The notes beneath the pieces are model-generated. The model was not told the DNA's origin. It was given only the letters and a program-made list of their open reading frames with translations, and ran no database searches. A stretch of DNA of 64,000 nt, taken from NCBI GenBank assembly GCA_049322875.1, contig JBMOQM010000056.1, forward strand, positions 5,997-69,996. The letters are read 5' to 3'. Positions 15,716 to 56,913 of this stretch are shown piece after piece. The position numbers and the translations under genes were made by a program. Position 1 is the stretch's first letter. Each line of letters starts with the position of its first letter. Source of the stretch: Pseudomonadota bacterium (GTDB lineage Bacteria; Pseudomonadota; Gammaproteobacteria; Burkholderiales; Burkholderiaceae_C).

Positions 15716-15875
15716 CTTGAAACTCGCTAATCCGCTCATTGATGAGCAAAATGTCCGTCAAACGAGGCAAAGGCCATGTTGATCCCTTGTTTGAAGGACA
15801 GCCGCTGCCTTGAATTTGCGCCAACATAGCGCATGTTCGGGATTTTCGCTCCCCCCGGTTGAGACAACGACAGCA

Positions 15876-17244: not shown

Positions 17245-17577
17245 TTACAGCAGGTGTCCGTCGTCGTTGAGCGTGGCGTCCAGCCGTGTGATCAGGGTGT
17301 CCAGATATTCCTTGGACACGGCGTTGTCGCCGGATTGGGCGGGCGCTTCTGCGGAGGGCGTGGCGGCGCTGGGGGCCGGCATCGAGGCCAGCTCGTAGGC
17401 CAGGTTCAGGGCGGCCAGCACGGCGATGCGCTCGCGCGCTTTGAGCTTGCCGGCGTCGCGAATGGCACACATCTCGCGGTCCACGTGGCTGACGGCCTGG
17501 CGCAGTTGCGGCTCGCCGCCGTCGGGACAGCCCAGCAGGTAGCTCTGCCCCATGATGGAGACTTCGATCTGTTTCAT
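17245..17577 (-). CDS. zapA: Cell division protein ZapA
   Basis: IEVSIMGQSYLLGCP..L..AV..VD.EM..I..ERIAVLAALNLA; followed by 6S RNA. Confidence 0.92.
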   Translation of the reverse strand: MKQIEVSIMGQSYLLGCPDGGEPQLRQAVSHVDREMCAIRDAGKLKARERIAVLAALNLAYELASMPAPSAATPSAEAPAQSGDNAVSKEYLDTLITRLDATLNDDGHLL

Positions 17578-17816
17578 GCGCGGTCGTCAGGCGGGAGCTC
17601 GTCGTCCTCGCCGGCAGTGGCCGAGGCGGGGGCGGGCAGTTTGTCGATCAGGGTGTCGATGCGGGCACGAGCGGCCGACAGGCGCGCGCGCAGCGAATCA
17701 CGCTCTTGCGTGGTCACCTGCAGTTGCTGCTGCAGCAGGGCGTTGGTGCGCTGCAGTTCCTCGTGGCGCAGCAGCAGGCGCTCGACGCGGTCGGTCAGGT
17801 CTTCGATCCTGGACAT
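17574..17816 (-). CDS. ZapB-like / DUF904 coiled-coil protein
   Basis: 80 aa heptad-rich sequence; stop overlaps the zapA start. Confidence 0.75.
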   Translation of the reverse strand: MSRIEDLTDRVERLLLRHEELQRTNALLQQQLQVTTQERDSLRARLSAARARIDTLIDKLPAPASATAGEDDELPPDDRA

Positions 17817-17865
17817 GAGGGTGGGCCCTCGCTCCCATGGTGGCCTCTGCGGAGGCGGAACCCGG

Positions 17866-17935
17866 ATTGTAGGCGGCGAAACCGGCGCGCAGGCTGGGGC
17901 ACGCCCTTACCGCCCTTGGGCACTCGCCTTACAAT
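17866..17935. promoter_or_regulatory. Back-to-back sigma70 -10 elements (zapB-like leftward, riboswitch/btuB rightward)
   Basis: TACAAT on the minus strand at 17866-17871 and on the plus strand at 17930-17935. Confidence 0.5.
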
Positions 17936-17941
17936 GCCGCC

Positions 17942-18153
17942 CGTTGGTGCTCGCGCCGGGGTTCGCTCGGCGCAGTTAAACGGGAAGCAAGAGGGCTTGA
18001 GGCACCACCGGTGCCAGCTCGACTTGCGCTGCCCCCGCAACGGTCGGCGGTCAAGCCCTGCAAGGGGCTTCGCTCGTGTTCTACAGCCACTGGGTACACA
18101 CAACACCTGGGAAGGCTTCACGGGTCGAACCGCCCAGCCCGGATACCGGCCAG
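17942..18153 (+). promoter_or_regulatory. Cobalamin (AdoCbl) riboswitch
   Basis: GGTGC..AGTTAAACGGGAA, CTGCCCCCGCAACGGT, GCCACTG..GGGAAGGC, AGCCCGGATACCGGCC; lies upstream of btuB and cob genes. Confidence 0.93.
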
Positions 18154-18257
18154 CAGGGGGTGTGGTGGCACAGAGCCTGGGGCCGTGTTGCCGTGCCATG
18201 TCGCCTCATGCCTGGCGGGGATGCCGGCGGGGCTTTTGTCCTGTGTGTTTTTCAATC

Positions 18258-41750: not shown

Positions 41751-43208
41751 ATGGCGACCTTCGACGTTCTCCCCGTGATCATGGCTGGTGGCTCCGGCAC
41801 CCGCCTGTGGCCCCTGTCGCGCGCGCTGTATCCCAAGCAGTTCCTGGCGCTCAACGGTCCGCAGACGCTGTTCCAGCAAGCGCACCTTCGCCTGAAGGGG
41901 CTGGGCGCCGCAGACATCGCGGTGGCCACACCGTGCATCGTCGGCAACGAGGAACACCGCTTCCTGGTGCTTGATCAACTCCGCGAGGTCAAAGCCGATC
42001 CTTCCAGCCTGCTGCTCGAGCCCGTGGGCCGCAATACCGCGCCGGCGGTGGCACTGGCCGCCCTGCAGGCCACGGCCGATGGGAAGGATCCAATCCTGGT
42101 CGTGACGCCGGCTGATCAAACCGTGGTCGATGTGCCGGCCTACACCGCTGCGCTGCAGACCGCCGTCCGTGCGGCCGCCGGTGGCGACATCGTCATCCTG
42201 GGCATCACGCCTGATCGCCCTGAAACCGGCTTCGGCTATATCCATGCGGGCGATGCCGCGGCCGATGGCGCTCACCTCGTGCAGGCCTTCGTCGAAAAGC
42301 CCGACCGCCAGACGGCCGAAGGCTACCTGGCCAAGGGCGGCTACTACTGGAACAGCGGCATGTTCGTGATGCGTGCCTCGCGCTGGCTGGCGGCGCTGGC
42401 GCACTTTCGCCCGGACATCGCCCAGGCCACGGAGGCCTCCTTCAAGGCGCGCACCATCGACGCGGCTTTTGTCCGCCCTGACAAGGCCGCTTTCAGCGCC
42501 GTGCCTTCCGAATCTGTCGACTATGCCGTGATGGAGCAATGTCCCCGCCAGGCTCATGCCGGCTTCACGGTGCGCATGGTGCCGCTGGATGCGGGCTGGT
42601 CCGATCTGGGGGCCTGGGATGCCGTCTGGCAGGTCAGCCCGCAGGATGGCGCTGGCAATGCCAGCGAGGGCGACGCCCTGATCCACGACAGCCGCAGCAC
42701 CCTGGTGCACGCCACTTCGCGCCTGGTGGCCACCGTGGGCCTAGACAACGTGGTCGTGGTGGAAACGCCCGATGCCGTGCTGGTGGCTGATCGCAGCCGC
42801 AGCCAGGACGTCAAGAGCATCGTGACGGCCTTGAGCCAGCAGGATCGCCCTGAGGGCAGCCTGCACCGCCGCGTGCACCGCCCCTGGGGCTGGTACGACA
42901 GCATCGACCACGGCCCGCGCTTTCAGGTCAAGCGCATCATGGTCAAGCCCAAGGCCAAGCTCAGCCTGCAGATGCACCACCACCGCGCCGAGCACTGGAT
43001 CGTGGTCAGCGGCACGGCCGAGGTCACCTGCGGCGACAAAGTGATCATGCTGGGCGAGAACCAGTCCACCTACATCCCGCTGGGCTCCACGCACCGCCTG
43101 GCCAACCCCGGCACCATCCCGCTGGAGATCATCGAGGTGCAGTCCGGCAGCTACCTGGGTGAGGACGACATCGTCCGCTTCGAGGACAACTACGGGCGTT
43201 CGAGCTGA
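41751..43208 (+). CDS. manC: Mannose-1-phosphate guanylyltransferase / mannose-6-phosphate isomerase
   Basis: MAGGSGTRLWPLSR..YPKQF, EPVGRNTAPA, FVEKP, WNSGMF, WSDLGAW, C-terminal cupin RPWG..LSLQMHHHRAEHW. Confidence 0.95.
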   Translation: MATFDVLPVIMAGGSGTRLWPLSRALYPKQFLALNGPQTLFQQAHLRLKGLGAADIAVATPCIVGNEEHRFLVLDQLREVKADPSSLLLEPVGRNTAPAVALAALQATADGKDPILVVTPADQTVVDVPAYTAALQTAVRAAAGGDIVILGITPDRPETGFGYIHAGDAAADGAHLVQAFVEKPDRQTAEGYLAKGGYYWNSGMFVMRASRWLAALAHFRPDIAQATEASFKARTIDAAFVRPDKAAFSAVPSESVDYAVMEQCPRQAHAGFTVRMVPLDAGWSDLGAWDAVWQVSPQDGAGNASEGDALIHDSRSTLVHATSRLVATVGLDNVVVVETPDAVLVADRSRSQDVKSIVTALSQQDRPEGSLHRRVHRPWGWYDSIDHGPRFQVKRIMVKPKAKLSLQMHHHRAEHWIVVSGTAEVTCGDKVIMLGENQSTYIPLGSTHRLANPGTIPLEIIEVQSGSYLGEDDIVRFEDNYGRSS

Positions 43209-43219
43209 GCACTGTACGC

Positions 43220-43663
43220 ATGACGGTTGATCTGCCAGTGCATTTCCGGTGGCCCGTGCGGGTCTACTGGGAGGACACGGATGCCGGTGGCGTGGTGTTC
43301 TACGCCAACTACCTGAAGTTCTTCGAGCGTGCCCGCACCGAGTGGCTGCGCAGCCTGGGCCCGGCCCAGGAGGCCATGCGCAGCGCGGGGCAGGGCATGT
43401 TCGTGGTCAGCGAGACCCGCATGCGCTATCTTCGTCCGGCGCGCCTGGATGACGAACTGACCGTCACCGTGCGCCTGACCGACACCGGGCGCGCCAGCCT
43501 GGCCGTGGCCCAGCAATGCTGGCGCGGCGAGCAATTGCTGGTCGAAGGCGAGATCCGCATCGGCTGGGTCGTGCCGCAGTCGGACGGGCTGCTCAAACCC
43601 GCGCGCATGCCGGCCGAGGTGCTGGCCGCGCTGCCCGTTTACACGGATACCGCACAATCCTGA
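43220..43663 (+). CDS. ybgC: Tol-pal-associated acyl-CoA thioesterase
   Basis: RVYWEDTDAGGVVFYANYLKFFERARTEWLR. Confidence 0.93.
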   Translation: MTVDLPVHFRWPVRVYWEDTDAGGVVFYANYLKFFERARTEWLRSLGPAQEAMRSAGQGMFVVSETRMRYLRPARLDDELTVTVRLTDTGRASLAVAQQCWRGEQLLVEGEIRIGWVVPQSDGLLKPARMPAEVLAALPVYTDTAQS

Positions 43664-43725
43664 TCATCCGTGGTCATTTCGGCTCTGTGCCAAGATGACG
43701 CCCTTGCATCCGGAGGCATTTCTAC

Positions 43726-44448
43726 ATGAACCAAGACCTGTCCATCCTCGAGCTGGTGCTCAACGCCAGCCTGGTGGTCAAGATCGTGATGGTGCTGCTG
43801 CTGAGCGTGTCGCTCGTGAGCTGGACCATCATCTTCACCAAGGTGATCTGCCTGCGCCGCGTCAAGGCCGACAACGACGAGTTCGACCGCGAGTTCTGGG
43901 CTGGCCGCACGCTGCAGGAGCTCTACCAGGACGCCAGCCGTGGCGATGGCCCGGTCGCGCCCCAGGAGCGCATGTTCGCCGCGGGCATGCGCGAGTTCCT
44001 CAAGCTGCGCGAGAAGAAGGTGCAGGATGTGCCGGCATTGCTCGATGGTGCCCGCCGCGCGATGCGCGCCAGCTACCAGCGTGAGATGGACCTGCTCGAA
44101 TCACGCCTGGAGTTCCTGGGCTCGGTCGGATCCGTGTCGCCCTATGTGGGCCTGTTCGGCACGATCTGGGGGATCATGCATGCCTTCACCGGCCTGTCCA
44201 ACCTGCAGCAGGTGACGCTGGCCACGGTGGCCCCCGGCATCGCCGAAGCCCTGGTGGCCACGGCCATCGGCCTGTTCGCCGCCATCCCGGCCGTGCTGGC
44301 CTACAACCGCTTCGCCCGCGACATCGACCGCATCGCCACGCAGCTGGAGTCCTTCATGGAAGAGTTCTCCAACATCCTGGCGCGCAATGCGATGCTGACG
44401 GCGCCGGCCCCGGCGGCCGATGTGGGCCGCGCCTCCACCTTCCGCTGA
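43726..44448 (+). CDS. tolQ: TolQ
   Basis: LGSVGSVSPYVGLFGTIWGIM..F, VAPGIAEALVATAIGLFAAIPAV..YN. Confidence 0.95.
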   Translation: MNQDLSILELVLNASLVVKIVMVLLLSVSLVSWTIIFTKVICLRRVKADNDEFDREFWAGRTLQELYQDASRGDGPVAPQERMFAAGMREFLKLREKKVQDVPALLDGARRAMRASYQREMDLLESRLEFLGSVGSVSPYVGLFGTIWGIMHAFTGLSNLQQVTLATVAPGIAEALVATAIGLFAAIPAVLAYNRFARDIDRIATQLESFMEEFSNILARNAMLTAPAPAADVGRASTFR

Positions 44449-44469
44449 GCGACGCACGAAAGGCAAGCC

Positions 44470-44907
<438 letters not shown>

Positions 44908-44910
44908 CGG

Positions 44911-45789
44911 GTGGCCATTGGTGTGATCGATCCCTCCGGACCGGTGCTGCGCCCGCGCGGCACGGAAGACTGGCGCCCGGGCCTGGCGATGGCCCTGGCC
45001 GCCCACGGCCTGCTGCTGCTGGCGCTGCTGTTCAGCGTGAACTGGCGCACCACGCAGACCGAGGCGGTCGAAGCCGAGATGTGGTCCGAGATCCCGAGGG
45101 CGGCCGTTCGCGCGGCCCCGCCGCCAGAGCCCGCACCCGAACCTGCGCCGGAACCGGCCCCCCCGCCACCGCCGCCTCCCGCTCCGGCCCCCGAGCCCGC
45201 ACCGCCGCCTGAGCCTATTCCTGCCGAGGTGCAGGTACGCAAGGAGCCGCCCAAGCCGGCCAAGACCAAGCCACCGAGGGAGGTGTTCGACTCCACGCCG
45301 CCGAAACCGGTCAAGAAACCTGAGCCGAAACTCGAGCCCAAGCCGGAACCCAAACCCGCGCCCAAGCCGGCACCGGCCGAGCCCAAGCCCGCGGCCAAAC
45401 CGACACCCGCCCCGCCCCCGGGTGCCACCGCGGCTGAACGCGAGAAGGCGCGCAAGGACGCCCTGGCACGCATGATGGCCGATCTGGGCGGCCCCGCACT
45501 CAGTTCGGCCGGGCCCAGTGGCGGCAACTACGCCGGGCGGATCATTGCCCGCGTCAAGCCCAACATCCTCTTCACGGACACCGTGTCCGGCAACCCCGTG
45601 GCCGAGGTCGAGGTACGCGCCGCCGCCGACGGGCGGATCATCGGCCGCAAGTTGATCAAGTCCAGCGGCTTGCCCGCCTGGGACGACGCCGTGCTGCGGG
45701 CCATCGACAAGACCGAGGTGCTGCCCGCCGATGAGCGCGGCAAGGTGCCGTCGTCGATCCAGATCGAGTTCAAATACCGCGATCTCTGA
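44911..45789 (+). CDS. tolA: TolA (Pro/Glu/Lys-rich linker + TonB-like C domain)
   Basis: GGAGG RBS + GTG; ALAAHG TM motif; PE/PK repeats; SSGLPAWDDAVLRAI. Confidence 0.88.
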   Translation: MAIGVIDPSGPVLRPRGTEDWRPGLAMALAAHGLLLLALLFSVNWRTTQTEAVEAEMWSEIPRAAVRAAPPPEPAPEPAPEPAPPPPPPPAPAPEPAPPPEPIPAEVQVRKEPPKPAKTKPPREVFDSTPPKPVKKPEPKLEPKPEPKPAPKPAPAEPKPAAKPTPAPPPGATAAEREKARKDALARMMADLGGPALSSAGPSGGNYAGRIIARVKPNILFTDTVSGNPVAEVEVRAAADGRIIGRKLIKSSGLPAWDDAVLRAIDKTEVLPADERGKVPSSIQIEFKYRDL

Positions 45790-45920
45790 GCCGCCAGCAG
45801 GGCTTCAAGGGCGATAAGCGCGTGATAAGTCACGTATTTGGCAGCATTCCCTCGCCATTGTTTTCATAGCATGGCATCTGTGAATGCGAGGCTTGCGCAG
45901 GCCTTGCCTGAAGGAGATCC

Positions 45921-48509
45921 ATGTCTGAGCCCTCGCTGCCGCCGCTGTCCTGGTCGGTCGATCCCGACGCCCCGGGCGACCTGTCCCCCCTCTCTATGGA
46001 GGGAGAGTCCGCCACGTCGATGGCGGTCGAGGAGGACGATGCCGGTGACGCGTTCCGCTGGCCCACCCCCCCGTTTGCCACCTACCCTGCGCCCACGCCA
46101 CAGCGCGAGCACGAGGCCTGCGAGTTCGAAGGGCTCAATGGCAAGCTGATGAAGGGCCGGCTGGTCTTCTTCGAGCCCGAGGAAAACCTGGCCCAGGTGC
46201 AGGTGCCTCCCGCACGCACCACGATGCCGCTGCGCTTCAGCCAGTTCCGCACGCTGTTGCTCACGCGCCCCTGCAAGCCCACCGTGCATTCGGACGATGC
46301 GGATCCGCACGCGCCCATGCTCGAGCAGCGCCCCATCTCCGATTTCGTGGTGCACCTCAAGGCCGGTGGCGAGATGGAAGGCACCACCATCGGCCATGTC
46401 GAGAAGGATTTCGGCCTGTTCCTGTTCCCGCCCATGGACGGCCAGGGCTCGGTCAGCCGCCTGTTTGTGCCGCGCGAGGCCTACAGCGGCTTCGAAGTCG
46501 GCCCCCGCATCGGCGAGGTGCTGGTGTCCAGTCAGGCGATCACGCCAGCGCAGGTGGAGCAGGCCGTCGAGGTGCAGCAGCAGATGCGCAACCAGAAGCT
46601 GGGTGACATCCTGCTGACCAAGCACGTGGTGTCGGCTGACCAGTTGCTGATGGCCATCGAGCAGCAAAGCCGCATGCCCATGGTGCGCATCGGCGAGGCG
46701 CTCACGGCACTGGGCCTGATCACCGATGCGCAACTGTCCGAGGCGCTGGAAGAACAGAAGCGTGACCGCAGCGTACCCCTGGGTGAACTGCTGGTGCGCC
46801 TGCAGATGGTGTCCCGGCAGGATCTGCTCACGGCCTTGGCCCGCAAGATGGGCTATCCGCTGGTCGACGTGCAGAAGTTCCCCATCGAGCCCGAGGCGCT
46901 GCGCAAGGTGCCTTACAACGTCGCCTCCCGCCTGGAGGCGCTGCCGCTGTTGCTGCGCGAATCCAGCCTGATCGTGGCCGTGGAGGATCCCAGCCGCCGC
47001 CTGACGCTGTCGGAGCTGGAGTTCATCGCCCAGTGCAAGATCGTGCCGGTGCTGGGCCAGCCCGCCCACATCCAGTGGGCCCTTCAGGATGCCTACGGCA
47101 AGATCGGCGCGGACATGTCCACGGGCATGTTCACCAAGATGTCGGGCAGCGCGTCGATGCCGCTGGAGCTGGACCCTGAAGATTCCAACTCCCTGGTCGC
47201 CAACCTCGAGAAGGAGGGCATCGATGCCGTCAACCTCGAGGAAGACAAGTCCATCGAGCAGAGCGACAACTCGTTGGTGCGCCTGATCAACACCATGATC
47301 GTCGAGGCCCACCAGCAGGGCGTGTCCGACATCCACATCGAGAGCTATCCGGGCCGCGAGAAGATCAAGATCCGCTTTCGCAAGGACGGCGCGCTGGTGC
47401 CCTACCTGGAGCTGCCGCACAACTACCGCAGCGCCGTGATCGCCCGCATCAAGATCATGTGCGATCTGGACATCTCCGAGCGCCGCAAGCCGCAGGACGG
47501 CAAGATCAACTTCGCGCGCTTTGTGCCGCAGTACAAGATCGAGCTGCGCGTGGCCACCATCCCCACCAACAACGGGATGGAGGATGTGGTGATGCGGATC
47601 CTGGCCTCGGCCAAGCCGCTGCCGCTGGACAAGATCGGCCTGAGCCCCTGGAATCTGGCCAAGCTCAAGGAGGCCATGGAGCGCCCCTATGGCCTGGTGC
47701 TGTGCGTGGGCCCGACCGGTTCCGGCAAGACCACCACGCTGCACTCGGCGCTGAGCTTCATCAACGTGCCCGAGCGCAAGATCTGGACGGCCGAAGACCC
47801 GGTCGAAATCACCCAGCCTGGGCTGCGCCAGGTGCAGATCAACCCCAAGATCGAGTGGACCTTCGCCAAGGCGCTGCGGGCCTTCCTGCGGGCCGACCCC
47901 GACGTCATCATGGTCGGCGAAATGCGCGATGGCGAGACCGCCAGCATGGGTGTCGAAGCCTCGCTCACGGGCCACTTGGTGCTCTCCACCCTGCACACGA
48001 ACAGTGCACCGGAGACGGTCACCCGTCTGCTCGACATGGGCATGGACCCGTTCAACTTCGCCGATTCACTGCTGGTGGTGCTGGCCCAGCGCCTGGTGCG
48101 CCGCCTGTGCACCCAGTGCCGCGTGAGCGAGCCGGCCACCGAAGAGCAGGTCGAGGAGCTGCTGGCCGATTACCTGCACGTTTGCCCCAAGGACGACGCG
48201 AGATTCACGCCCGATGTCATCCGAAACGACTGGTTGACGCGTTTCGGTAGAGAAGGGCGCCTGCTTCGCCACACCAACACGGGCTGCGCGCACTGCAACC
48301 AGACCGGTTACAAAGGCCGTGCGGGCATCCACGAACTGATGGCGGTGAGCCGCGATCTGCGTCGTTTGGTGCAGACCGGCGCACGGGCGGAGGAGTTGCA
48401 GCGCCAGGCTTTGGCCGATGGCATGCGCACACTTCGGCAAGACGGCATCGAAAAGGTGCTGGCGGGCCTGACGAGCATGGAAGAGGTGCGTTCGACCAGC
48501 AATGCCTGA
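45921..48509 (+). CDS. GspE/PilB/MshE-family secretion ATPase with an extended N-terminus and four MshEN-like repeats
   Basis: LDISERRKPQDG, Walker A GPTGSGKTT, AEDPVE, Walker B DPDVIMVGEMRD, His box GHLVLSTLHTN, CxxC..CxxC zinc motif; AAGGAG RBS. Confidence 0.92.
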   Translation: MSEPSLPPLSWSVDPDAPGDLSPLSMEGESATSMAVEEDDAGDAFRWPTPPFATYPAPTPQREHEACEFEGLNGKLMKGRLVFFEPEENLAQVQVPPARTTMPLRFSQFRTLLLTRPCKPTVHSDDADPHAPMLEQRPISDFVVHLKAGGEMEGTTIGHVEKDFGLFLFPPMDGQGSVSRLFVPREAYSGFEVGPRIGEVLVSSQAITPAQVEQAVEVQQQMRNQKLGDILLTKHVVSADQLLMAIEQQSRMPMVRIGEALTALGLITDAQLSEALEEQKRDRSVPLGELLVRLQMVSRQDLLTALARKMGYPLVDVQKFPIEPEALRKVPYNVASRLEALPLLLRESSLIVAVEDPSRRLTLSELEFIAQCKIVPVLGQPAHIQWALQDAYGKIGADMSTGMFTKMSGSASMPLELDPEDSNSLVANLEKEGIDAVNLEEDKSIEQSDNSLVRLINTMIVEAHQQGVSDIHIESYPGREKIKIRFRKDGALVPYLELPHNYRSAVIARIKIMCDLDISERRKPQDGKINFARFVPQYKIELRVATIPTNNGMEDVVMRILASAKPLPLDKIGLSPWNLAKLKEAMERPYGLVLCVGPTGSGKTTTLHSALSFINVPERKIWTAEDPVEITQPGLRQVQINPKIEWTFAKALRAFLRADPDVIMVGEMRDGETASMGVEASLTGHLVLSTLHTNSAPETVTRLLDMGMDPFNFADSLLVVLAQRLVRRLCTQCRVSEPATEEQVEELLADYLHVCPKDDARFTPDVIRNDWLTRFGREGRLLRHTNTGCAHCNQTGYKGRAGIHELMAVSRDLRRLVQTGARAEELQRQALADGMRTLRQDGIEKVLAGLTSMEEVRSTSNA

Positions 48510-48684
48510 GGCTGGTGCGCGGCAGGTGATTTCGGCAACATTGCGCTCTGGAAGGGTTTGTTGCGCGGGCACAGCACCCGCAAGGCGAAAAAGGTGCAAG
48601 ATAGGCACCAACAAGTCACGGATCAAAAGGTGGAAACCCAGGTTTCTCCCCGATTGAACCAACCGCGATTTGATCGATCTTTGA

Positions 48685-48700
48685 TGGACATGACGATGCA
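48685..48700 (+). promoter_or_regulatory. Weak candidate sigma54 promoter for prkA-yeaH-spoVR
   Basis: TGGACATGACGATGCA fits GG-N10-GC, but the -24 element deviates from TGGCAC. Confidence 0.3.
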
Positions 48701-48783
48701 CGGTTTGTGCGTCTCACCAGCGCGGATCTGGCGGGGGCATCCCAGTGCATCGACTCTCTCGTGACGATGGACCGGAGGTATGC

Positions 48784-50706
48784 ATGGACGTGATCAGCAA
48801 CTTCGCCGCCCGCTATGAGCGCACACGCGAAGAAGAGTACTCCCTCGAGGAATACCTCGAGATCTGCAAGCGCGACAAGACGGCCTTTGCCAGCGCCGCC
48901 GAGCGCATGCTGCAGGCCATCGGTGAGCCGCAGATGGTCGACACGCGCAACGATCCGCGCCTGTCGCGCATCTTCACCAACAAGGTCATCAAGATCTACC
49001 CGGCCTTCGAAGAGTTCTTCGGCATGGAAGACGCCATCGAGCAGGTGGTGAGCTACTTCCGGCATGCCGCGCAGGGCCTGGAAGAAAAGAAACAGATCCT
49101 GTACCTGCTGGGCCCGGTGGGCGGCGGCAAGTCGTCCATCGCCGAGCGCCTGAAGCTGCTGGCCGAGAAAGTGCCGTTCTACGCGATCAAGGGATCGCCC
49201 GTGAACGAATCACCGCTGGGCCTGTTCGACCCGACAGAAGACGGTCCGATCCTGGAGAAGGAATACGGGATCCCGCGCCGTTACCTGCAGCGCATCCTGA
49301 GCCCCTGGGCTGTCAAGCGCCTCGAAGAGTTCGGTGGCGACATCCGCCAGTTCCGCGTCGTCAAGCGCTACCCCAGCATCCTCAAGCAGGTCGGCATCGC
49401 CAAGACCGAGCCGGGTGACGAGAACAACCAGGACATCTCCAGCCTGGTCGGCAAGGTCGACATCCGCAAGCTCGAGACCTACGCGCAGGACGACCCGGAT
49501 GCGTACAGCTACTCCGGCGGCCTGTGCCTGGCCAACCAGGGCCTGCTCGAGTTCGTGGAAATGTTCAAGGCGCCGATCAAGGTGCTGCACCCGCTGCTCA
49601 CGGCCACCCAGGAAGGCAACTTCAAGGGTACCGAAGGCTTTGGTGCGATCCCCTTTGATGGCGTCGTGCTGGCCCACTCGAACGAGAGCGAGTGGAAGGC
49701 CTTCCGCAACAACAAGAACAACGAGGCCTTCCTCGACCGGATCTACATCGTCAAGGTGCCGTACTGCCTGCGCGCGAGTGAAGAGATCAAGATTTACGAG
49801 AAGCTGGTGCGCGGCTCGTCGCTGAGCCAGGCGCCGTGCGCCCCGGGCACGCTCAAGATGATGAGCCAGTTCGCCATCCTCACGCGCCTGAAGGAGCCCG
49901 AGAACTCCAGCATCTTCAGCAAGATGCAGGTCTACGACGGCGAGAACCTGAAGGACACGGATCCCAAGGCCAAGTCCATCCAGGAGTACCGTGATTACGC
50001 GGGCGTGGATGAAGGCATGAGCGGCATCTCCACCCGCTTCGCCTTCAAGATCATCTCCAAGGTGTTCAACTTTGACAGCGCAGAGGTGGCGGCCAACCCC
50101 GTGCACCTGATGTACGTGCTGGAGCAGCAGATCGAGCGCGAGCAGTTCCCGGCCGAGCTGGAGCAGAAGTACATCGCTTACATCAAGGAGATGCTGGCGC
50201 CGCGCTATGCCGAGTTCATCGGCAAGGAGATCCAGACGGCCTACCTGGAAAGCTATTCCGAGTACGGCCAGAACATCTTCGACCGCTACGTGACCTACGC
50301 CGACTACTGGATCCAGGACCAGGAGTACCGCGACACGGACACCGGCGAGATCTTCGACCGCAGCTCGCTCAACGCCGAGCTCGAGAAGATCGAGAAGCCG
50401 GCCGGCATCGCCAACCCGAAGGATTTCCGCAACGAGATCGTCAACTTCGTGCTGCGCGCCCGGGCCAACAACGGCGGCAAGAACCCGCTGTGGACCAGCT
50501 ACGAAAAGCTGCGCACGGTGATCGAAAAGAAGATGTTCAGCAACACCGAAGAGCTGTTGCCGGTCATCAGCTTCAACGCCAAGGCCAGCGCCGACGAGGT
50601 CAAGAAGCACGAGGACTTCGTCAACCGCATGGTCCAGAAGGGCTACACGGCCAAGCAGGTGCGCCTGCTGTGCGAGTGGTACCTGCGTGTGCGGAAATCG
50701 TCATGA
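48784..50706 (+). CDS. prkA: PrkA/YeaG AAA+ serine protein kinase
   Basis: GGAGG RBS; YLLGPVGGGKSS, TEPGDENNQDISSLVGKVDIR, ANQGLLEFVEMFKAPIK, EAFLDR. Confidence 0.95.
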   Translation: MDVISNFAARYERTREEEYSLEEYLEICKRDKTAFASAAERMLQAIGEPQMVDTRNDPRLSRIFTNKVIKIYPAFEEFFGMEDAIEQVVSYFRHAAQGLEEKKQILYLLGPVGGGKSSIAERLKLLAEKVPFYAIKGSPVNESPLGLFDPTEDGPILEKEYGIPRRYLQRILSPWAVKRLEEFGGDIRQFRVVKRYPSILKQVGIAKTEPGDENNQDISSLVGKVDIRKLETYAQDDPDAYSYSGGLCLANQGLLEFVEMFKAPIKVLHPLLTATQEGNFKGTEGFGAIPFDGVVLAHSNESEWKAFRNNKNNEAFLDRIYIVKVPYCLRASEEIKIYEKLVRGSSLSQAPCAPGTLKMMSQFAILTRLKEPENSSIFSKMQVYDGENLKDTDPKAKSIQEYRDYAGVDEGMSGISTRFAFKIISKVFNFDSAEVAANPVHLMYVLEQQIEREQFPAELEQKYIAYIKEMLAPRYAEFIGKEIQTAYLESYSEYGQNIFDRYVTYADYWIQDQEYRDTDTGEIFDRSSLNAELEKIEKPAGIANPKDFRNEIVNFVLRARANNGGKNPLWTSYEKLRTVIEKKMFSNTEELLPVISFNAKASADEVKKHEDFVNRMVQKGYTAKQVRLLCEWYLRVRKSS

Positions 50707-50841
50707 CCTAGATCGGAGACCTATGCGGCAAGCTGCAGCAGAGCAGACGACAAGCCCCTTCGGGGGCCGTCCCCAGCGAGGCCGGCACTGTGGTGTGATG
50801 CACGTGCCAGGCCCCGGGTTTGTCACGGGGAGGACGCGCAC

Positions 50842-52143
50842 ATGACCATGCAGCACATCATCGACCGGCGGCTGGCGGGCAAGAACAAGTCCATCGGCAA
50901 CCGCGAGCGCTTCCTGCGCCGCTACAAGGTGCAGGTGCGCGAGGCGGTGCAGCGCGCCATCAACGGCCGCAGCATCCGCGACATCGAGAAGGGCGAGGAC
51001 ATCACCATCCCCAAGCGGGACTTGTCCGAGCCGGTCTTTGGCCACGGCCAGGGCGGTATCCGCGACATGGTGCACCCCGGCAACCGCGAGTACGTGCGCG
51101 GCGACCGCATCGAGCGGCCGCAAGGCGGCGGCGGGCAGGGCGGTGGTGGCAGCCAGGCCAGCGACGATGGCGAAGGCGAGGACGATTTCGTCTTCTCGCT
51201 GAGCAAGGAAGAGTTCATGCAGGTCTTCTTCGAGGACCTGGCCTTGCCCAACCTGGTGCGCACCGCGCTGGCCGAGGTGCCGGAGTGGAAGAGCCAGCGC
51301 GCCGGCTTCTCCAGCGACGGCACGCCCAACAACCTGCACGTGGTGCGCTCGATGCGCGGTGCCCTGGGCCGCCGGATCGCGCTGGGTGCTTCCTCACGCC
51401 ATGAGATCCGCGAGCTGGAAGAGCGGCTGGCCGAGCTGCGTGGCATCACCGAATCCGGTGACGCGGCGCTGCTGCGCAAGCATGCCGAGGAGATGGAGCA
51501 GATCGAGGCCCGCCTGCAGCACCTGCGCGGCCGCATGCTGGGCATCCCCTTCCTGGACCCGATCGACCTGCGTTTCCGCAGCCGCATCAAGGTGCCGGTG
51601 CCCACCACCAAGGCCGTGATGTTCTGCGTGATGGACGTGTCCGGCTCGATGGACGAGCAGCGCAAGGAGCTGTCCAAGCGCTTCTTCATCCTGCTGTATT
51701 TGTTCCTGACGCGGCACTACGACCACATCGAGCTGGTCTTCATCCGCCACCATACGCAGGCCCAGGAGGTGACGGAAGACGAGTTCTTCCACGCCACCGA
51801 AACCGGCGGCACCGTGGTGTCCAGCGCGCTGGTGCTGCTCGATGAAGTGATCCAGGCCCGCTACCCGACCAGCGAGTGGAACCTGTACGTGGCCCAGGCC
51901 AGCGATGGCGACAACTGGCACCACGATTCCAGCCGCTGCAGCCAGATCCTGGAAGACAAGATCCTGCCGCTGGTGCGCTACTACGCCTACGTGCAGGTGG
52001 CGCAGACCGAGCAGAACCTGTGGGACGAGTACCTGGCCCTGGGTGAGCGCCACAAGCACTTCGCGATGCGCAAGGTGCTCGATGCTGCCCAGATCTACCC
52101 GGTGTTCCGCGAGCTGTTCAAGAAGGAAGGGGTGGAAGCATGA
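50842..52143 (+). CDS. yeaH: YeaH/YhbH (DUF444) vWA-domain protein
   Basis: IIDRR..KNKS..NRERFLRR, HPGNREY, MIDAS-like DVSGSM, FIRHHT, TGGT.VSSAL, ASDGDNW. Confidence 0.93.
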   Translation: MTMQHIIDRRLAGKNKSIGNRERFLRRYKVQVREAVQRAINGRSIRDIEKGEDITIPKRDLSEPVFGHGQGGIRDMVHPGNREYVRGDRIERPQGGGGQGGGGSQASDDGEGEDDFVFSLSKEEFMQVFFEDLALPNLVRTALAEVPEWKSQRAGFSSDGTPNNLHVVRSMRGALGRRIALGASSRHEIRELEERLAELRGITESGDAALLRKHAEEMEQIEARLQHLRGRMLGIPFLDPIDLRFRSRIKVPVPTTKAVMFCVMDVSGSMDEQRKELSKRFFILLYLFLTRHYDHIELVFIRHHTQAQEVTEDEFFHATETGGTVVSSALVLLDEVIQARYPTSEWNLYVAQASDGDNWHHDSSRCSQILEDKILPLVRYYAYVQVAQTEQNLWDEYLALGERHKHFAMRKVLDAAQIYPVFRELFKKEGVEA

Positions 52144-53687
52144 ATGCCGAAACCAAGCAAAGCCACCAGTTGCCCGGCCCCTCCGACTGGACCTTCGAGC
52201 TGATCCATGACTACCACACGGTGATCCGCCAGACGGCCGAGAGCTTCAAGCTGGACACCTACCCGAACCAGCTCGAGATCATCACCGCCGAGCAGATGAT
52301 GGACGCCTACGCCAGCGTGGGCATGCCGGTGAACTACCGGCACTGGTCCTACGGCAAGGAATTCATCGCCACGGAGAAGAACTACCGCCGTGGCTACATG
52401 GGCCTGGCCTACGAGATCGTCATCAACTCCAATCCCTGCATCAGCTACCTGATGGAGGAGAACACCATGGCCATGCAGGCCCTGGTGATCGCGCATGCGG
52501 CTTACGGCCACAACAGCTTCTTCAAGGGCAATTACCTGTTCCGCATGTGGACGGACGCGGGCTCCATCATCGACTACCTGGTCTACGCCAAGAACTACGT
52601 GGCCCAGTGCGAGGAGCGCTATGGCATCGACTTGGTCGAAGAAACGCTCGATTCCTGTCACGCGCTGATGAACCATGGCGTGGACCGCTACCGCCGCCCC
52701 AGCAAGCTCTCGCTTGACAAGGAACTGGCCCGCCGCGAAGAGCGCGAGGCCTACCTGCAGCAGCAGGTCAATGACCTGTGGCGTACCTTGCCGCGTCGGG
52801 TGGACCGGCCTGAAGAGGAAGCCGTGCGTCGCTTCCCCGCCGAGCCACAAGAGAACCTGCTGTACTTCATCGAGAAGCACGCGCCCTTGCTGGAGCCCTG
52901 GCAGCGCGAGATCGTGCGCATCGTGCGCAAGGTGGCGCAGTACTTCTACCCGCAGCGCCAGACGCAGGTAATGAACGAGGGGTGGGCCACCTTCTGGCAC
53001 TACACCCTGCTCAACACCATGTACGAGCAAGGTCACCTGGCCGACGGGATCATGCTGGAGTGGCTGCAGTCGCACACCAACGTGGTGTTCCAGCCGCCGG
53101 TGGGGCACCGGGCGTACAGCGGCCTCAACCCGTATGCGCTGGGCTTCGCGATGTACACGGACCTCAAGCGCATCTGCGAGAAACCCACGGACGAAGACCG
53201 CCACTGGTTCCCCGACTTCGCCGGCTCCGCCGAAGGCGCGGCCCCGGGCGATCACGCGTGGCTCAAGACCCTGGATTACGCCATGCGCAATTTCAAGGAC
53301 GAGAGCTTCGTGGGGCAGTTCCTGTCGCCCAAGGTGATGCGTGATTTCCGCCTCTTCGCCATCCACGATGACGAGGACGATTCCGAGCTGGAGGTCTCTG
53401 CCATCCATGACGAGGCCGGCTACCGCAACCTGCGCGAGGCCCTGTCACGCCAGTACGACCTGGGATCGCGCGAGCCCAACATCCAGGTGTGGAGCGTGAA
53501 CCTGCGCGGCGACCGCTCACTCACGCTGAGGCACACCCAGCACAACAACCGCCCCCTGGCCGATGGCACCCGCGAGGTGCTCAAGCATGTGGCGCGGCTG
53601 TGGGGCTTCCCGGTGCACATGGAAAGCGTGGATCCGCAGGGCCACGTGCGCCAGCAGTGGACGGTGGTGCCCTCGACGATGGACTGA
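52140..53687 (+). CDS. spoVR: SpoVR/YcgB family protein
   Basis: GMPVNY.HWSYGK, LAYEIVINSNPCI, HAAYGHNSFFK, QTQVMNEGWATFWHY, NPYALGF, NFKDESF. Confidence 0.94.
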   Translation: MNAETKQSHQLPGPSDWTFELIHDYHTVIRQTAESFKLDTYPNQLEIITAEQMMDAYASVGMPVNYRHWSYGKEFIATEKNYRRGYMGLAYEIVINSNPCISYLMEENTMAMQALVIAHAAYGHNSFFKGNYLFRMWTDAGSIIDYLVYAKNYVAQCEERYGIDLVEETLDSCHALMNHGVDRYRRPSKLSLDKELARREEREAYLQQQVNDLWRTLPRRVDRPEEEAVRRFPAEPQENLLYFIEKHAPLLEPWQREIVRIVRKVAQYFYPQRQTQVMNEGWATFWHYTLLNTMYEQGHLADGIMLEWLQSHTNVVFQPPVGHRAYSGLNPYALGFAMYTDLKRICEKPTDEDRHWFPDFAGSAEGAAPGDHAWLKTLDYAMRNFKDESFVGQFLSPKVMRDFRLFAIHDDEDDSELEVSAIHDEAGYRNLREALSRQYDLGSREPNIQVWSVNLRGDRSLTLRHTQHNNRPLADGTREVLKHVARLWGFPVHMESVDPQGHVRQQWTVVPSTMD

Positions 53688-53869: not shown

Positions 53870-53981
53870 GTGAGCGCGCTGCGCAATTTTCGCTTTTTCA
53901 CAGCGTTGGCAATTCTGCTGCCGGGATGTTGTCCTGCCCGCGGGGTTGCACTTTCATGGTTTAACAAGGAGAAACCCCTCA

Positions 53982-55274
53982 ATGGTGCTGAGCAGACTCA
54001 CAAAGGTCGGCATGGCGGTGTCCACGCTGATCCTGGCCTGTGCACAGGCCCATGCCGACAGTTCGGCGTTCCGCTTCTCGGGCTTCGGCACGGTTGGTGG
54101 CGTGGTCACCGACAACGGCGACGTCGAGTTCGCCACCCCGGGGCAGCCCTCCGGTGCCAAGAAGTCACTGGACCTGGGCGTGGATTCGCGCATCGGTGTG
54201 CAGGCTTCCTACCAGCTCAACGACATGTTCTCGGGCACCGTGCAGGTGATCTCGAAGCACAACGGCAAGGGCAACTACAACCCGAACGTGGAATGGGCCT
54301 TCGTGAAGGCGCAGATCACCCCGTCGGTGGGCCTGCGTGCCGGCCGCATCGGCGCCCCGTATTTCATGATCTCGGACTACCGTGACGTGAACTACGCCAA
54401 CCTGTGGGTGCGTCCGCCCCTGGAAACCTATGGCCAGGTGCCCGTGAGCAACGTCACCGGCGCGGACCTGATTGTGACCCACGCCATGGGGCCGGCCAAT
54501 GTGTCGGCGCAACTGTGGGGTGGCCTGTCGCGCGCCACGCTGGAGCGCAATACGGACGTCACCATTCGCAATCAAGTGGGCCTGAGCCTGTCGGCGGAGT
54601 TCGACAACGGTCTGACGCTGCGAGCCGGCCACTCCGCCGGCAAGGTGTCGATCAGCAGCCCCAGCCTGCGCACGCTTCAGGCTGGCAGCAGCGCCGTGGC
54701 GACGGCGGTCAACGGTGGCGCATTCGGCGGTGGTGCCGCGGCCGCCTACGGCCCGTCGATGAGCGCGACCGTGGATGAGCTGGACCTCAGCGGCCGCAGC
54801 GCCACGTTCTCCGGCATCGGCGCGAGCTGGGAACTGGGCAACTGGCAGTTGAACGGCGAGTACACCCGCCGTCACATCGATGGCTACCTGGGCTCCTCGA
54901 CCGGCTGGTATGCCTCTGCAGGCTACCGCCTGGGCAAGGTGACGCCTTTCGCCTACGTCTCGGGTCTGAAGGTGTCCGGGGTGGCGTCGAACGGCTTTGC
55001 ATCGGGTGCCGCCGCGCTGGGTGGCTTCAGCCCGCAGCTGACGGCTGTTTCCAATGGCGTGAACACGGTGTTCAGCGATGCACGAACCGGTGGCCAGCGT
55101 TCGGTGGCCCTGGGTGCTCGCTGGGATGCCTGGAAGAGCGCGTCGCTCAAGGCCCAGCTGGAGCACATCACGCCCAAGGATGGCGGCGTGGGCCTGTTCG
55201 TGGCCAATCCCGGCTCATCCCTCAATGGCGACAGCGTGAACGTGCTGAGCGTCAGTGTCGACTTCGTGTTCTAA
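53982..55274 (+). CDS. Uncharacterised outer-membrane porin-like beta-barrel
   Basis: AAGGAG RBS; signal peptide ending AHA; FSGFGT, DSRIGVQ, VEWAFV, RAGRI..P.FMISDY..VNYA..WVRPP.E.Y; terminal DFVF. Confidence 0.8.
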   Translation: MVLSRLTKVGMAVSTLILACAQAHADSSAFRFSGFGTVGGVVTDNGDVEFATPGQPSGAKKSLDLGVDSRIGVQASYQLNDMFSGTVQVISKHNGKGNYNPNVEWAFVKAQITPSVGLRAGRIGAPYFMISDYRDVNYANLWVRPPLETYGQVPVSNVTGADLIVTHAMGPANVSAQLWGGLSRATLERNTDVTIRNQVGLSLSAEFDNGLTLRAGHSAGKVSISSPSLRTLQAGSSAVATAVNGGAFGGGAAAAYGPSMSATVDELDLSGRSATFSGIGASWELGNWQLNGEYTRRHIDGYLGSSTGWYASAGYRLGKVTPFAYVSGLKVSGVASNGFASGAAALGGFSPQLTAVSNGVNTVFSDARTGGQRSVALGARWDAWKSASLKAQLEHITPKDGGVGLFVANPGSSLNGDSVNVLSVSVDFVF

Positions 55275-55292
55275 CAAGGGGAGATCGACACC

Positions 55293-55727
55293 ATGATGTA
55301 CGGCAAATTTGCCCTGTCTTCGATCGTGGCCGGCGTGCTGGCCGTGGCCTCCCAGTTCGCTGCCGCCCAGGTGGCGGTGGTCGTCGGTGCCAAGAGCCCG
55401 GTGGGCAACCTCACCGATGAGCAGGTGGCCAGCGTCTACCTCGGCAAGACCAACACGCTGCCTGGCGGCGGCGCGGTGGCCCTGGCCGACCTGCCCGAGT
55501 CCAACCCGGCCCGGGATCACTTCTACACCAAGGCCACGGGCAAGAACGGTGCGCAGATCAAGGCCACCTGGGCCCGCCTGACCTTCTCCGGCAAGGGCGT
55601 GCCCCCCAAGGAGATGGCCACCTCGGCCGATGTGAAGAAGTTCGTGGCAGGCAACCCCAACGCCATTGGCTACATCGAGAAGTCCGCCGTGGACGCCTCG
55701 GTGAAGGTGGTGCTCTCGCTCGACTGA
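55293..55727 (+). CDS. Small secreted single-lobe periplasmic-binding-protein-like protein (PstS-like half domain)
   Basis: GGGAG RBS; signal peptide ending AAA; VVV..SPV..LT..QV..VYLGK, W....FSGKG.PP, V..NPNAIGYI. Confidence 0.78.
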   Translation: MMYGKFALSSIVAGVLAVASQFAAAQVAVVVGAKSPVGNLTDEQVASVYLGKTNTLPGGGAVALADLPESNPARDHFYTKATGKNGAQIKATWARLTFSGKGVPPKEMATSADVKKFVAGNPNAIGYIEKSAVDASVKVVLSLD

Positions 55728-55794: not shown

Positions 55795-56913
55795 TTAGCG
55801 CCCCAGGCCGTACAGCCCTGCGCGGTCCAGGCGGACCAGCACGTTGCTGCGCGCCACGGTGGCCGCGACCTTGAACTCCGGCCGGGCGGTGTCCCGTGGG
55901 ATAGGGTGCACGTAGACGCGCCCGTCGCTGCTGACCAGGCTGCACACATGCGGCGTGTTGGCGGCCTCGCCTGAGCGCACCACCACGGCGGTCTCTCCGT
56001 TGCCGAGCTTGACGAAGCTGCCCGGGGGGTAGATGCCCATCTCCTTGACGATGGCGGCCGCGTACAGATTGTTCGCGCCGCCGGCCGACAGGAACATCTC
56101 GCGGGCGGCCGCGTTGGGCGCCATGGCCGAGCGTGACACGCGGGAGCTCAGCTTGGCGAGGTAGACATCCACGTAATGGATCAGGCAGGCCAATTCACCG
56201 GCCTTGCGGACATCAGCGGGCAGGGGCTTGCCGCCATCGGTCACATGATGGAACTCCACGGCCCGCAGCCAGGTGTCATCCGTGACGCCTGCCTTTTCCA
56301 GCATCTCGCGGCTCCGCCTGGCGTGCTGCCGGATCTCCTGGCGCTGGCCGGGGCTGAGCGGCGTGGCCTGCACCGCCAGGGCGTTCTGCAGCTCGATCAT
56401 GGCCACGTTCATGGTCAGTGAGGCGTTGATCAGCGCGGCGCGGTCGCCCTCGCTCCAGCCCAGCCTGGCCGCCACCAGCGTGGCGATGCAGGCCGTCTGG
56501 AGGGAATGCGTGACGGCGTAGTTGGGCGAATCGTTGTGGACCATCTCGAATTTGCCGATGTCCACGTTGTGCCCGATGGCCCCGACGATGTCGTGGCCGA
56601 TGCCTGCCACCTCGGTGGCGAATTCGCCGCCCTCCGTGCAATGGCGCAAAACAGCACCCACCCGACGCTGAATACCTGCCCACACGCTGAAGGGGTCGAA
56701 CACGGCTGCCTGATCCTGCATTTGCCGGCGGTTTTCTCTTTCATATTCTTCAGCATCCACATAGACGCCGCGTTCGAGCAGGGTCTCGATCTGGCTCTGC
56801 TCCGTGGGGACAAAACCCTTGTTCAGCAGCAACTGGCCGGGCTCGTTGCGGACCCCCCAGGGAAGAGGGTGGTTCAGGCGAATCTCATGGGCACACAGCC
56901 GAAGCAACTTCAT
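55795..56913 (-). CDS. Degenerate HD-GYP-like protein
   Basis: HD-GYP architecture (HSLQTA, HH.TDG, D.Y.A..S.R, GIYPPGS.VKL.NGE.AVV), but LHD is replaced by TMN and GYP by KPL. Confidence 0.78.
   Translation of the reverse strand: MKLLRLCAHEIRLNHPLPWGVRNEPGQLLLNKGFVPTEQSQIETLLERGVYVDAEEYERENRRQMQDQAAVFDPFSVWAGIQRRVGAVLRHCTEGGEFATEVAGIGHDIVGAIGHNVDIGKFEMVHNDSPNYAVTHSLQTACIATLVAARLGWSEGDRAALINASLTMNVAMIELQNALAVQATPLSPGQRQEIRQHARRSREMLEKAGVTDDTWLRAVEFHHVTDGGKPLPADVRKAGELACLIHYVDVYLAKLSSRVSRSAMAPNAAAREMFLSAGGANNLYAAAIVKEMGIYPPGSFVKLGNGETAVVVRSGEAANTPHVCSLVSSDGRVYVHPIPRDTARPEFKVAATVARSNVLVRLDRAGLYGLGR

Follow-up and report, generated by a model that had tools for sequence, protein, structure and literature searches.

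Tandem MshEN-type modules in a stand-alone PilB/GspE-class ATPase family, a candidate c-di-GMP effector of Burkholderiales

Introduction

The MshE ATPase of Vibrio cholerae holds cyclic di-GMP (c-di-GMP) in two copies of the motif RLGxx(L/V/I)(L/V/I)xxG(L/V/I)(L/V/I)xxxxLxxxLxxQ, each copy taking half of one ligand molecule through position 1 (by stacking), Leu2, the backbone of Gly3, Leu17, Leu21 and Gln24, with Gly10 being a turn residue that makes no ligand contact (PMC5013675). Wang et al. (2016) catalogued (MshEN)2-, (MshEN)3- and (MshEN)4-T2SSE proteins, GAF- and REC-MshEN-T2SSE fusions and (MshEN_N)2 arrays standing alone (PMC5013675), and in Thermus thermophilus PilF, which binds two c-di-GMP per monomer, the GSPII-C domain is made of three consecutive motifs, one of them starting with Pro (PMC11731258). 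Multi-MshEN T2SSE ATPases, tandem (MshEN_N)2 arrays, a three-motif domain and a 2:1 ratio of c-di-GMP to monomer are all, in other words, already published (PMC5013675, PMC11731258). Here we analyse a 64,000-nucleotide (nt) stretch of a Pseudomonadota bacterium genome (GenBank assembly GCA_049322875.1, contig JBMOQM010000056.1, positions 5,997 to 69,996 of the forward strand; hereafter the window), in which an 862-amino-acid (aa) protein of the PilB/GspE ATPase class carries four such motifs in a row. Judged by its sequence, the family to which this protein belongs is a solid candidate c-di-GMP effector.

Like V. cholerae MshE (5HTL; PMC5013675), which is also its top structural match by Foldseek, the protein joins 24-aa motifs, a four-helix bundle and an MshEN_C subdomain to a PilB/GspE-type ATPase. 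Unlike MshE, whose gene belongs to the msh pilus operon and whose single module has a 5-aa spacer, it has two modules with 6-aa spacers, no operon partners and an extra 150-aa beta-barrel domain. T. thermophilus PilF (6F8L, 8PDK), another assembly ATPase, likewise has MshEN motifs repeated along an extended N-terminus, and in the best PDB sequence match units 2-4 of our protein align with the three-motif GSPII-C domain (6f8l residues 301-396). PilF, however, repeats the whole MshEN domain (N and C subdomains) three times, whereas here four consecutive motifs run without an intervening MshEN_C, so that a bare MshEN_N stands before one full MshEN; PilF, whose established role is in type IV pili and DNA uptake, also has no counterpart of the beta-barrel domain (PMC11731258, PMC12002112). 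Four motifs in a row are also found in the (MshEN_N)2 arrays of Cyanothece cce_1044, Geobacter Glov_2742 and Myxococcus MXAN_7396, but their fusion partners are signalling outputs (CheX or adenylate cyclase) and not a T2SSE ATPase, Glov_2742 being (MshEN_N)2-CheX and MXAN_7396 (MshEN_N)2-REC-ACyc (PMC5013675 Suppl. Table 4). A hidden Markov model (HMM) of the repeat unit found three units in myxobacterial cyclases of the (MshEN_N)2-REC-ACyc type. The order described below, namely a tandem-barrel domain, a bare MshEN_N, a full MshEN and an ATPase, together with strict orphan status, is not in the catalogue of PMC5013675.

Results

Four MshEN-type units in two consecutive modules

The repeat array occupies positions 46506-46847 of the window on the forward strand, corresponding to aa 196-309 of the product of the 45921-48509 open reading frame (ORF). 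An initial annotation, made by a model from the sequence alone, had proposed four tandem MshEN-like repeats here, and our translation is identical to the one it gave: units of 24 aa start at aa 196, 226, 256 and 286, so that the period is exactly 30 aa, a unit plus a 6-aa spacer. Unit 1 (46506..46577, +; aa 196-219) reads RIGEVLVSSQAITPAQVEQAVEVQ, unit 2 (46596..46667, +; aa 226-249) reads KLGDILLTKHVVSADQLLMAIEQQ, unit 3 (46686..46757, +; aa 256-279) reads RIGEALTALGLITDAQLSEALEEQ and is fully canonical, and unit 4 (46776..46847, +; aa 286-309) reads PLGELLVRLQMVSRQDLLTALARK, with Pro1 and Lys24 replacing Arg and Gln. Unit-against-unit BLOSUM62 scores lie 3.3-5.8 standard deviations above those of random 24-mer pairs drawn from the same protein. 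At the nucleotide level the units share 31-42 of 72 positions, too few for the repeat to have arisen by a recent DNA duplication, and it is instead old and has been kept at the protein level. We then scored the units with NF053729 ('c-di-GMP_motif, MshE-related'), a curated NCBIfam model of 53 aa with a cut-off of 38 bits. Scored alone, units 1+2 reached 54.0 bits (E 1e-14) and units 3+4 reached 56.8 bits (E 1.4e-15). The array is far beyond chance, and its four units are confirmed as genuine.

The position of the MshEN_C/T2SSE_N1 alpha/beta subdomain and the HMM registers suggest that the units pair as 1+2 and 3+4. This subdomain is present in a single copy, after unit 4 (PF05157 at aa 310-394, 61.9 bits, E 5.6e-17 in the Pfam search), and with units 3+4 it would form a complete MshEN domain, module B (46686..47105, +; the subdomain being aa 310-395). 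Units 1+2 would form module A (46506..46667, +), an extra MshEN_N-type four-helix module without an MshEN_C of its own. An AlphaFold2 model of aa 40-400, built on an alignment of 57 sequences with identities as low as about 28%, has a predicted local distance difference test (pLDDT) score of 94.4 and a predicted template modelling (pTM) score of 0.84, and contains eight helices followed by the MshEN_C alpha/beta fold. Each unit is predicted as one short and one long helix: aa 197-203, 209-223, 227-233 and 239-251 in module A, all at pLDDT >90, and aa 257-263, 269-283, 287-293 and 299-310 in module B. The 20 best Foldseek matches in the PDB are all MshE, the N-domain of Xanthomonas citri PilB, PilF GSPII-A/B or the N-domain of XpsE; module B matches MshE 5htl at E 4e-8, with a TM-score to the target of 0.62-0.70, and also the X. 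citri PilB N-domain (7lkm). The MshEN-type identity proposed in the initial annotation is thus backed by a curated HMM, by the predicted fold and by Foldseek matches to the N-domains of MshE, PilF and XpsE.

Conservation of the ligand-contacting positions

To see which motif positions are kept, per-position conservation was counted in 57 diverse relatives, the most distant of them about 28% identical. Gly3 occurs in 52/56 relatives in unit 1, in 55/57 in unit 2 and in all 57/57 in units 3 and 4. Gln24 is found in 52/56, 54/57 and 55/57 relatives in units 1, 2 and 3, its place in unit 4 being taken by Lys in 57/57. Position 1 is variable in unit 1 (Arg 28, Pro 13, Leu 5), Lys or Arg in unit 2 (48/57), Arg or Lys in unit 3 (55/57) and Pro in unit 4 (48/56). 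Leu17 is kept in 56/57 relatives in unit 2 and in 54/57 in unit 3, where Leu21 is kept in 53/57, and all units have Leu17 and Leu21 or conservative replacements of them. Gly10 is missing family-wide from units 1 and 2; it is found in 41/57 relatives in unit 3 and in 40/57 in unit 4, where the window sequence has Gln.

The initial annotation had noted that only unit 3 keeps the second Gly of the motif, which is true of the window sequence, where Gly stands at position 10 in unit 3 only. The doubt it drew from this about ligand binding by the first pair is weak: position 10 is a turn position, the helix-turn-helix is predicted at pLDDT >90, and Geobacter PilB has Asn there. At the contact positions (1, 2, 3, 17, 21 and 24), pair A reads R-I-G..V..V..Q and K-L-G..L..I..Q, with every residue present or conservatively replaced, and pair B reads R-I-G..L..L..Q and P-L-G..L..L..K, with two departures, both in unit 4. 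Module A therefore appears to keep every contact and to be short of the turn glycines only, and any doubtful pair would, contrary to the concern of the initial annotation, be that of module B, whose unit 4 has the near-universal Pro1 and Lys24. Proven binders tolerate Lys or Leu at position 1, and Pro1 occurs in motif II of the c-di-GMP-binding GSPII-C domain of PilF (PMC11731258). Gln24 is a polar ligand contact in both MshE and PilF (PMC12002112), so that its conservation in units 1-3 is hard to account for by structure alone.

Calibration of NF053729 on characterized proteins gave, among binders, 86.3 bits for V. cholerae MshE (against 54-57 bits for the motifs here), 83.4 bits for Pseudomonas aeruginosa PA3740, 63.5 bits for PilF GSPII-B and 54.7 bits for P. 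aeruginosa PA2677. Motifs I+II of PilF GSPII-C, a domain that binds c-di-GMP, scored 54.3 bits. Among non-binders, PilF GSPII-A scored 55.2 bits and P. aeruginosa PilB (PaPilB) was not matched. A non-binder scoring between the 54.0 and 56.8 bits of our two modules raises the alternative that the repeats are degenerate, having kept the MshEN_N fold and lost c-di-GMP binding, and act as a helical spacer or a protein-interaction surface as in GSPII-A, XpsE and PaPilB. The unit 4 Lys24 and Pro1 of nearly all relatives and the family-wide absence of Gly10 from units 1 and 2 would fit such a history, as would the finding that consensus-level sequence is insufficient for binding (PMC12002112). We nevertheless consider degeneration unlikely: each unit keeps its Gly3, and each of units 1-3 its Gln24, in no fewer than 90% of relatives, even with identities falling to about 28%, whereas GSPII-A itself has lost both Gln24 and the second Gly3, and XpsE and PaPilB are far more degenerate; in one lineage, moreover, GGDEF genes adjoin the ATPase gene.

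A similar distinction separates our protein from Xanthomonas PilB (7LKM) and XpsE (2D27), which share its N-terminal fold (Foldseek E 5.6e-8 and 2.4e-6, respectively). In the Xanthomonas PilB-PilZ-FimX system, c-di-GMP control of the motor passes via the N-terminal domain of PilB, which makes it a likeness to what is proposed here; however, the MshEN_N of these proteins has lost direct binding and c-di-GMP enters via the adaptor FimX, whereas the contact residues appear largely kept in our protein. We think it quite likely that at least one of the two modules binds c-di-GMP. That both do so, as in the 2:1 complex of Thermus PilF, is a tentative proposal, which we would expect to fail somewhat sooner than to hold.

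A PilB/GspE-class ATPase outside the named groups

The repeats belong to an ORF (45921..48509, +; Pfam T2SSE and MshEN) that is preceded by a Shine-Dalgarno sequence, AAGGAG, at 45911-45916 and encodes a PilB/GspE-class ATPase with an extended N-terminus. Its T2SSE ATPase region (N2 plus C-terminal domain; 47259..48488, +; aa 447-856) matches PF00437 over aa 447-856 at 410.1 bits (cut-off 24.9; E 8.7e-123). The catalytic motifs, which the initial annotation had described as intact, are all in place: Walker A, GPTGSGKT (47709..47732, +; aa 597-604); Walker B with the catalytic Glu, DPDVIMVGEMRD (47895..47930, +; aa 659-670); the His box, TGHLVLSTLH (47967..47996, +; aa 683-692), all three invariant in the family; and the two CxxC pairs of a tetracysteine zinc motif, C730-x2-C733 ... 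C789-x2-C792 (48108..48296, +; CTQC at 730 and CAHC at 789), whose four Cys are invariant in 40 relatives. A tetracysteine zinc motif of this kind is typical of assembly (PilB/GspE) ATPases. The best PDB matches of the core are PilB (345 bits), GspE/EpsE (336 bits) and PilF (335 bits), with PilT at about 105 bits. Together these features support an intact ATPase of the PilB/GspE class as the host protein of the repeats.

Within this class, the protein falls under the cut-offs of the named groups, scoring 546.8 bits with the PilB equivalog TIGR02538 (cut-off 675.65), 469.3 bits with the GspE equivalog TIGR02533 (cut-off 630.25) and 414.7 bits with the TfpB model NF053534 (cut-off 850). Its ATPase core is 52% identical to that of divergent proteins sharing its N-terminus and 41-43% identical to labelled PilB, GspE and MshE proteins (42.5% to PilB examples and 43.4% to GspE examples). 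On these sequence comparisons the family is placed as a separate clade of the assembly-ATPase class. Acinetobacter baylyi TfpB (NF053534; PMC11656802), a second PilB-class motor that serves the same pilus machine as PilB, is a precedent for an additional assembly ATPase. Our protein is no orthologue of TfpB (414.7 bits against a cut-off of 850), and the TfpB model has 584 positions compared with the 862 aa here.

From N- to C-terminus, the protein consists of a tail, a WPxPPF motif with tandem barrels, MshEN_N (module A), MshEN (module B), a linker and the ATPase. The N-terminal tail (45921..46046, +; aa 1-42) is poorly conserved, its alignment consensus being mostly 'x', and is probably disordered (pLDDT 29-32 in a full-length model). 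The linker (47106..47258, +; aa 396-446) is acidic, poorly conserved and variable in the alignment, and the full-length AlphaFold2 model gives low pLDDT at aa 403-419 and 438-448 and a helix at aa 422-436. Comparison of the gene with that of a closely related strain revealed 11 differences, 10 of them synonymous, and the ATPase gene is shown by this to be under purifying selection. The strain is represented by contigs from runs X13-X15 and X17, which were used only for this synonymous/non-synonymous count. These runs, labelled 'RNA?', were rejected as evidence of expression or of an operon over 43000-51000, where their 7-20 kb contigs have flat depth and behave like genomic DNA.

Distribution and orphan status of the family

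The closest homologues are proteins of about 850 aa from Aquabacterium (91% identity to A. soli), Rubrivivax, Methylibium, Caldimonas/Schlegelella and Rhizobacter. With one genome taken per species, at least 412 GTDB species have a match to aa 1-320, a number that may include MshEN-only matches; the 80 best of these species, all Burkholderiales, share the N-terminal architecture and align over aa 1-320 or 44-320 with identities of 52% upward. An exhaustive search of 1.84 billion representatives of 50%-identity clusters yielded at least 132 matches with E 1e-30 or better. Four units are detectable in 112/120 close homologues, and the layout of N-domain plus four units is retained down to about 28-35% identity. 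The family is thus common in Burkholderiales, and its architecture is routine in many species. The initial annotation had allowed that its reading would suffer if four-repeat architectures were routine among PilB paralogues with known roles; we find the architecture routine in many Burkholderiales, but in no member with a known role, and a literature search found no study of this ATPase family. Two proteins of other layouts, P0240 (1158 aa; five detectable motif units across aa 256-863) and P0114 (1057 aa, an unusual length; Aquabacterium; three detectable units), may be further architectural variants.

A Pfam scan of gene-like ORFs across the 64-kb window, several of them without any match, turned up no pilin or pseudopilin, PilC/GspF, prepilin peptidase or secretin; the initial annotation had likewise seen no pilin, PilC/GspF or secretin gene nearby. 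In some 80 related loci no recurrent neighbour resembles a pilus or secretion component, and no pilus or secretion gene stands beside three divergent members, whose neighbours are an RND efflux pump in one case, an acyl-CoA dehydrogenase, an AsmA-like gene and a hydrogenase in another, and mutL in the third. Orphan status is therefore a family trait and is not confined to this genome.

An ATPase that is an orphan at every locus examined, including members at 30-35% identity with unrelated neighbours, might be a stand-alone signalling protein that senses c-di-GMP and energises no filament or secretion machine, regulating instead, for example, exopolysaccharide or flagellar function. Such a protein would overlap with a c-di-GMP-dependent motor on the binding step. 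It would also fit the extra N-domain, missing from canonical motors, the position of the clade, which is about 52% identical internally and 41-43% identical to PilB, GspE and MshE, and its scores below the PilB and GspE equivalog cut-offs; Myxococcus xanthus PilB signals to the exopolysaccharide pathway in a comparable manner (PMC5544727). Yet all motor features are conserved, including MshEN_C/N1, which contacts platform/stator proteins, the zinc motif and the catalytic Glu. Orphan accessory motors that act on a pilus are known, TfpB being an example, and the alternative target is without positive evidence. We regard a purely signalling ATPase as improbable and retain the c-di-GMP-dependent motor as the favoured reading.

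Genes around the ATPase

The first 29 kb of the window hold aromatic-catabolism and cobalamin genes. Closer to the ATPase gene, the order upstream is a WbaP-like transferase, an epimerase, ManC and YbgC-TolQ-TolR-TolA, and downstream PrkA-YeaH-YcgB, two genes of no recognized family, an HD-type protein and flhB-flhA-flhF-fliA. The ybgC-tolQ-tolR-tolA genes (43163-45789, +) are not followed by tolB-pal, the ATPase gene coming instead, and a complete PrkA-YeaH(DUF444)-YcgB(SpoVR) module (48745-53687, +) follows the ATPase gene, a backbone kept in about half of related genomes. The ATPase could be pictured as one functional unit with its neighbours, either co-transcribed with ybgC-tolQRA or acting with the PrkA-YeaH-YcgB stress module: all these genes share one strand, the 131-bp gap after tolA shows neither a terminator nor a promoter consensus, and in related loci TolQ lies upstream in 34/66 and PrkA downstream in 21/60. 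The arrangement is, however, kept in half of the loci or fewer, unrelated genes, TRAP transporter and GGDEF genes among them, often intervene, and the surroundings are altogether different in Methylibium, the SBD11-9 strain and the divergent members. This variable synteny points to an inherited chromosomal backbone and not an operon, and we judge a tolQRA or prkA operon highly improbable.

Several other genes recur near the ATPase gene. Representative sequences of further recurrent neighbours, read without HMM confirmation, resemble TRAP transporter genes, ppk, polA and oxoprolinase. Two ORF clusters that in some relatives lie between tolA and the ATPase gene, c5 and c17 (for example at L027 5816-6772 and L023 9337-9639), encode a protein of about 320 aa and a Cys-containing secreted peptide of 100 aa, a pair that resembles DUF692/DUF2282 (bufferin-type) by eye only, with no HMM confirmation. 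In the window, two consecutive genes without a Pfam match (53946-55727, +; products of 442 aa and about 150 aa) follow the PrkA module, and they are found beside it in 6 related loci.

Putative genes of c-di-GMP metabolism appear near the ATPase gene in part of the family. In Schlegelella (S. aquatica, L001 5300-7755, -), two tandem GGDEF genes, confirmed by Pfam, lie between tolA and the ATPase gene on the opposite strand, and an ORF cluster homologous to them is the immediate upstream neighbour in 7 loci, its representative having a GGEEF motif. These neighbours provide a modest link to c-di-GMP by association and may signal locally to the ATPase. The window itself encodes a PAS-GGDEF protein (15795-16880, +; GGDEF E 7e-27, PAS_4 E 1e-8), which may be a diguanylate cyclase and is encoded some 30 kb away from the ATPase gene. 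A 372-aa protein encoded just upstream of flhB (55795-56913, -) has a weak, sub-threshold match to Pfam HD_5 (22.1 bits, cut-off 27.2), the HD-GYP-type family, which makes it a possible divergent phosphodiesterase of c-di-GMP, or a receptor for it, next to the flagellar genes. No c-di-GMP riboswitch or other RNA element was found near the ATPase gene. Elsewhere in the window, a cobalamin riboswitch (17928-18168, +; 76.5 bits, E 4e-17) precedes a TonB-dependent receptor gene, followed by CobU, a periplasmic binding protein, CobQ and CobS; because of the riboswitch, the stop-to-stop ORF at 17556-20129 overestimates the 5' end of the receptor gene.

A tandem-barrel N-terminal domain

Ahead of module A lie the WPxPPF motif and a predicted all-beta N-domain of two small barrels (46047..46505, +; aa 43-195), which appears DUF6982-like and Tudor/SH3/Sm-like in character. 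Its strands are predicted by AlphaFold2 at aa 65-118 and 140-193, with a pLDDT of about 92-98 that falls to 74-85 in the inter-barrel loop. Foldseek returned weak matches only, to Tudor, SH3 and Sm-like barrels: the tandem Tudor domain of 53BP1 (E 5e-3), the PHF1 Tudor domain and Hfq. A PilZ domain was considered and rejected, no PilZ family matching at E up to 1 and no PilZ being among the barrels found by Foldseek. Pfam DUF6982 (PF22478) matches at 16.3-18 bits, below its cut-off of 24.5 and covering only profile positions 79-132; it was matched in 16/57 relatives, at best with E 2.8e-8, and no papers on DUF6982 were found. The W-P-x-P-P-F motif (46059-46076; aa 47-52) stands directly ahead of the first barrel; W47, P48, P50 and P51 are invariant in 40 relatives, and the W and the three Pro are present in at least 90% of the 57 diverse relatives. 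A speculative role for it would be as a proline-rich ligand, intramolecular or of a partner, of the SH3/Tudor-like barrels.

Discussion

We favour the view, which we hold to be probable though well short of secure, that two consecutive MshEN_N-type four-helix modules serve a conserved, always stand-alone clade of the PilB/GspE class as the sensory part of a c-di-GMP-dependent motor. Each module would take one c-di-GMP, half a molecule per unit, like V. cholerae MshE. Nucleotide binding would alter the N-terminal assembly and, through it, the ATPase ring and/or partner binding, as for Chloracidobacterium PilB, in which allostery between the MshEN and ATPase domains has been described (PMC6957770). 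The hexamer would then power a platform whose genes lie elsewhere, either type IV pilus-like or of the type II secretion kind, in the role of an accessory or alternative extension motor; Acinetobacter TfpB is an accessory second extension motor (PMC11656802). The beta-barrel domain might supply docking or localisation.

A number of observations speak against this view, both at the binding step and at the motor step. The NF053729 score had to be discarded as a predictor of binding, because the proven non-binder GSPII-A, at 55.2 bits, lies within the 50-57 range found here, and GSPII-A with its consensus restored still did not bind (PMC12002112). The Lys24 of unit 4 is comparable to Arg62 of GSPII-A, and units 1, 2 and 4 of the window sequence are without Gly10. 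The proposed pairing of the units is itself open to challenge, the register of units 2+3 also scoring 50.1 bits, so that the three registers of the protein span 50.1-56.8. No partner machine emerged from the loci examined, and an assembly ATPase normally serves one particular machine and has its gene among those of that machine (PMC11656802); that even divergent members are consistently orphans is just as compatible with a non-motor role. Finally, the full-length AlphaFold2 model, built with 40 close homologues, is poor (pLDDT 63, pTM 0.31) and says nothing on contacts between the N-terminal region and the ATPase.

A bolder version of the non-motor role would deny the family any part in driving pili or secretion and make it a new stand-alone ATPase class with two c-di-GMP sites, in which the tandem Tudor/SH3-like barrels and the invariant WPxPPF motif dock onto another target and modules of different affinity give a two-threshold response. 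We consider this decidedly unlikely, and the c-di-GMP-dependent motor remains the reading we prefer.

Nothing established is overturned by this protein, every ingredient of which has been described before except the beta-barrel N-domain, and a specialist would not be surprised by it. Should both modules bind, the protein would be a compact, genetically isolated case of two unequal c-di-GMP sites tuning one hexameric motor, a question of two-site tuning that was opened by Thermus PilF and is hard to study there. The hosts of the family include many environmental Burkholderiales (Aquabacterium, Leptothrix, Methylibium, Piscinibacter, Rhizobacter and Caldimonas), typical biofilm formers in water systems. 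If a partner machine were found, or shown to be absent, the result would add a c-di-GMP effector to these Burkholderiales, and it bears on why bacteria keep extra PilB homologues.

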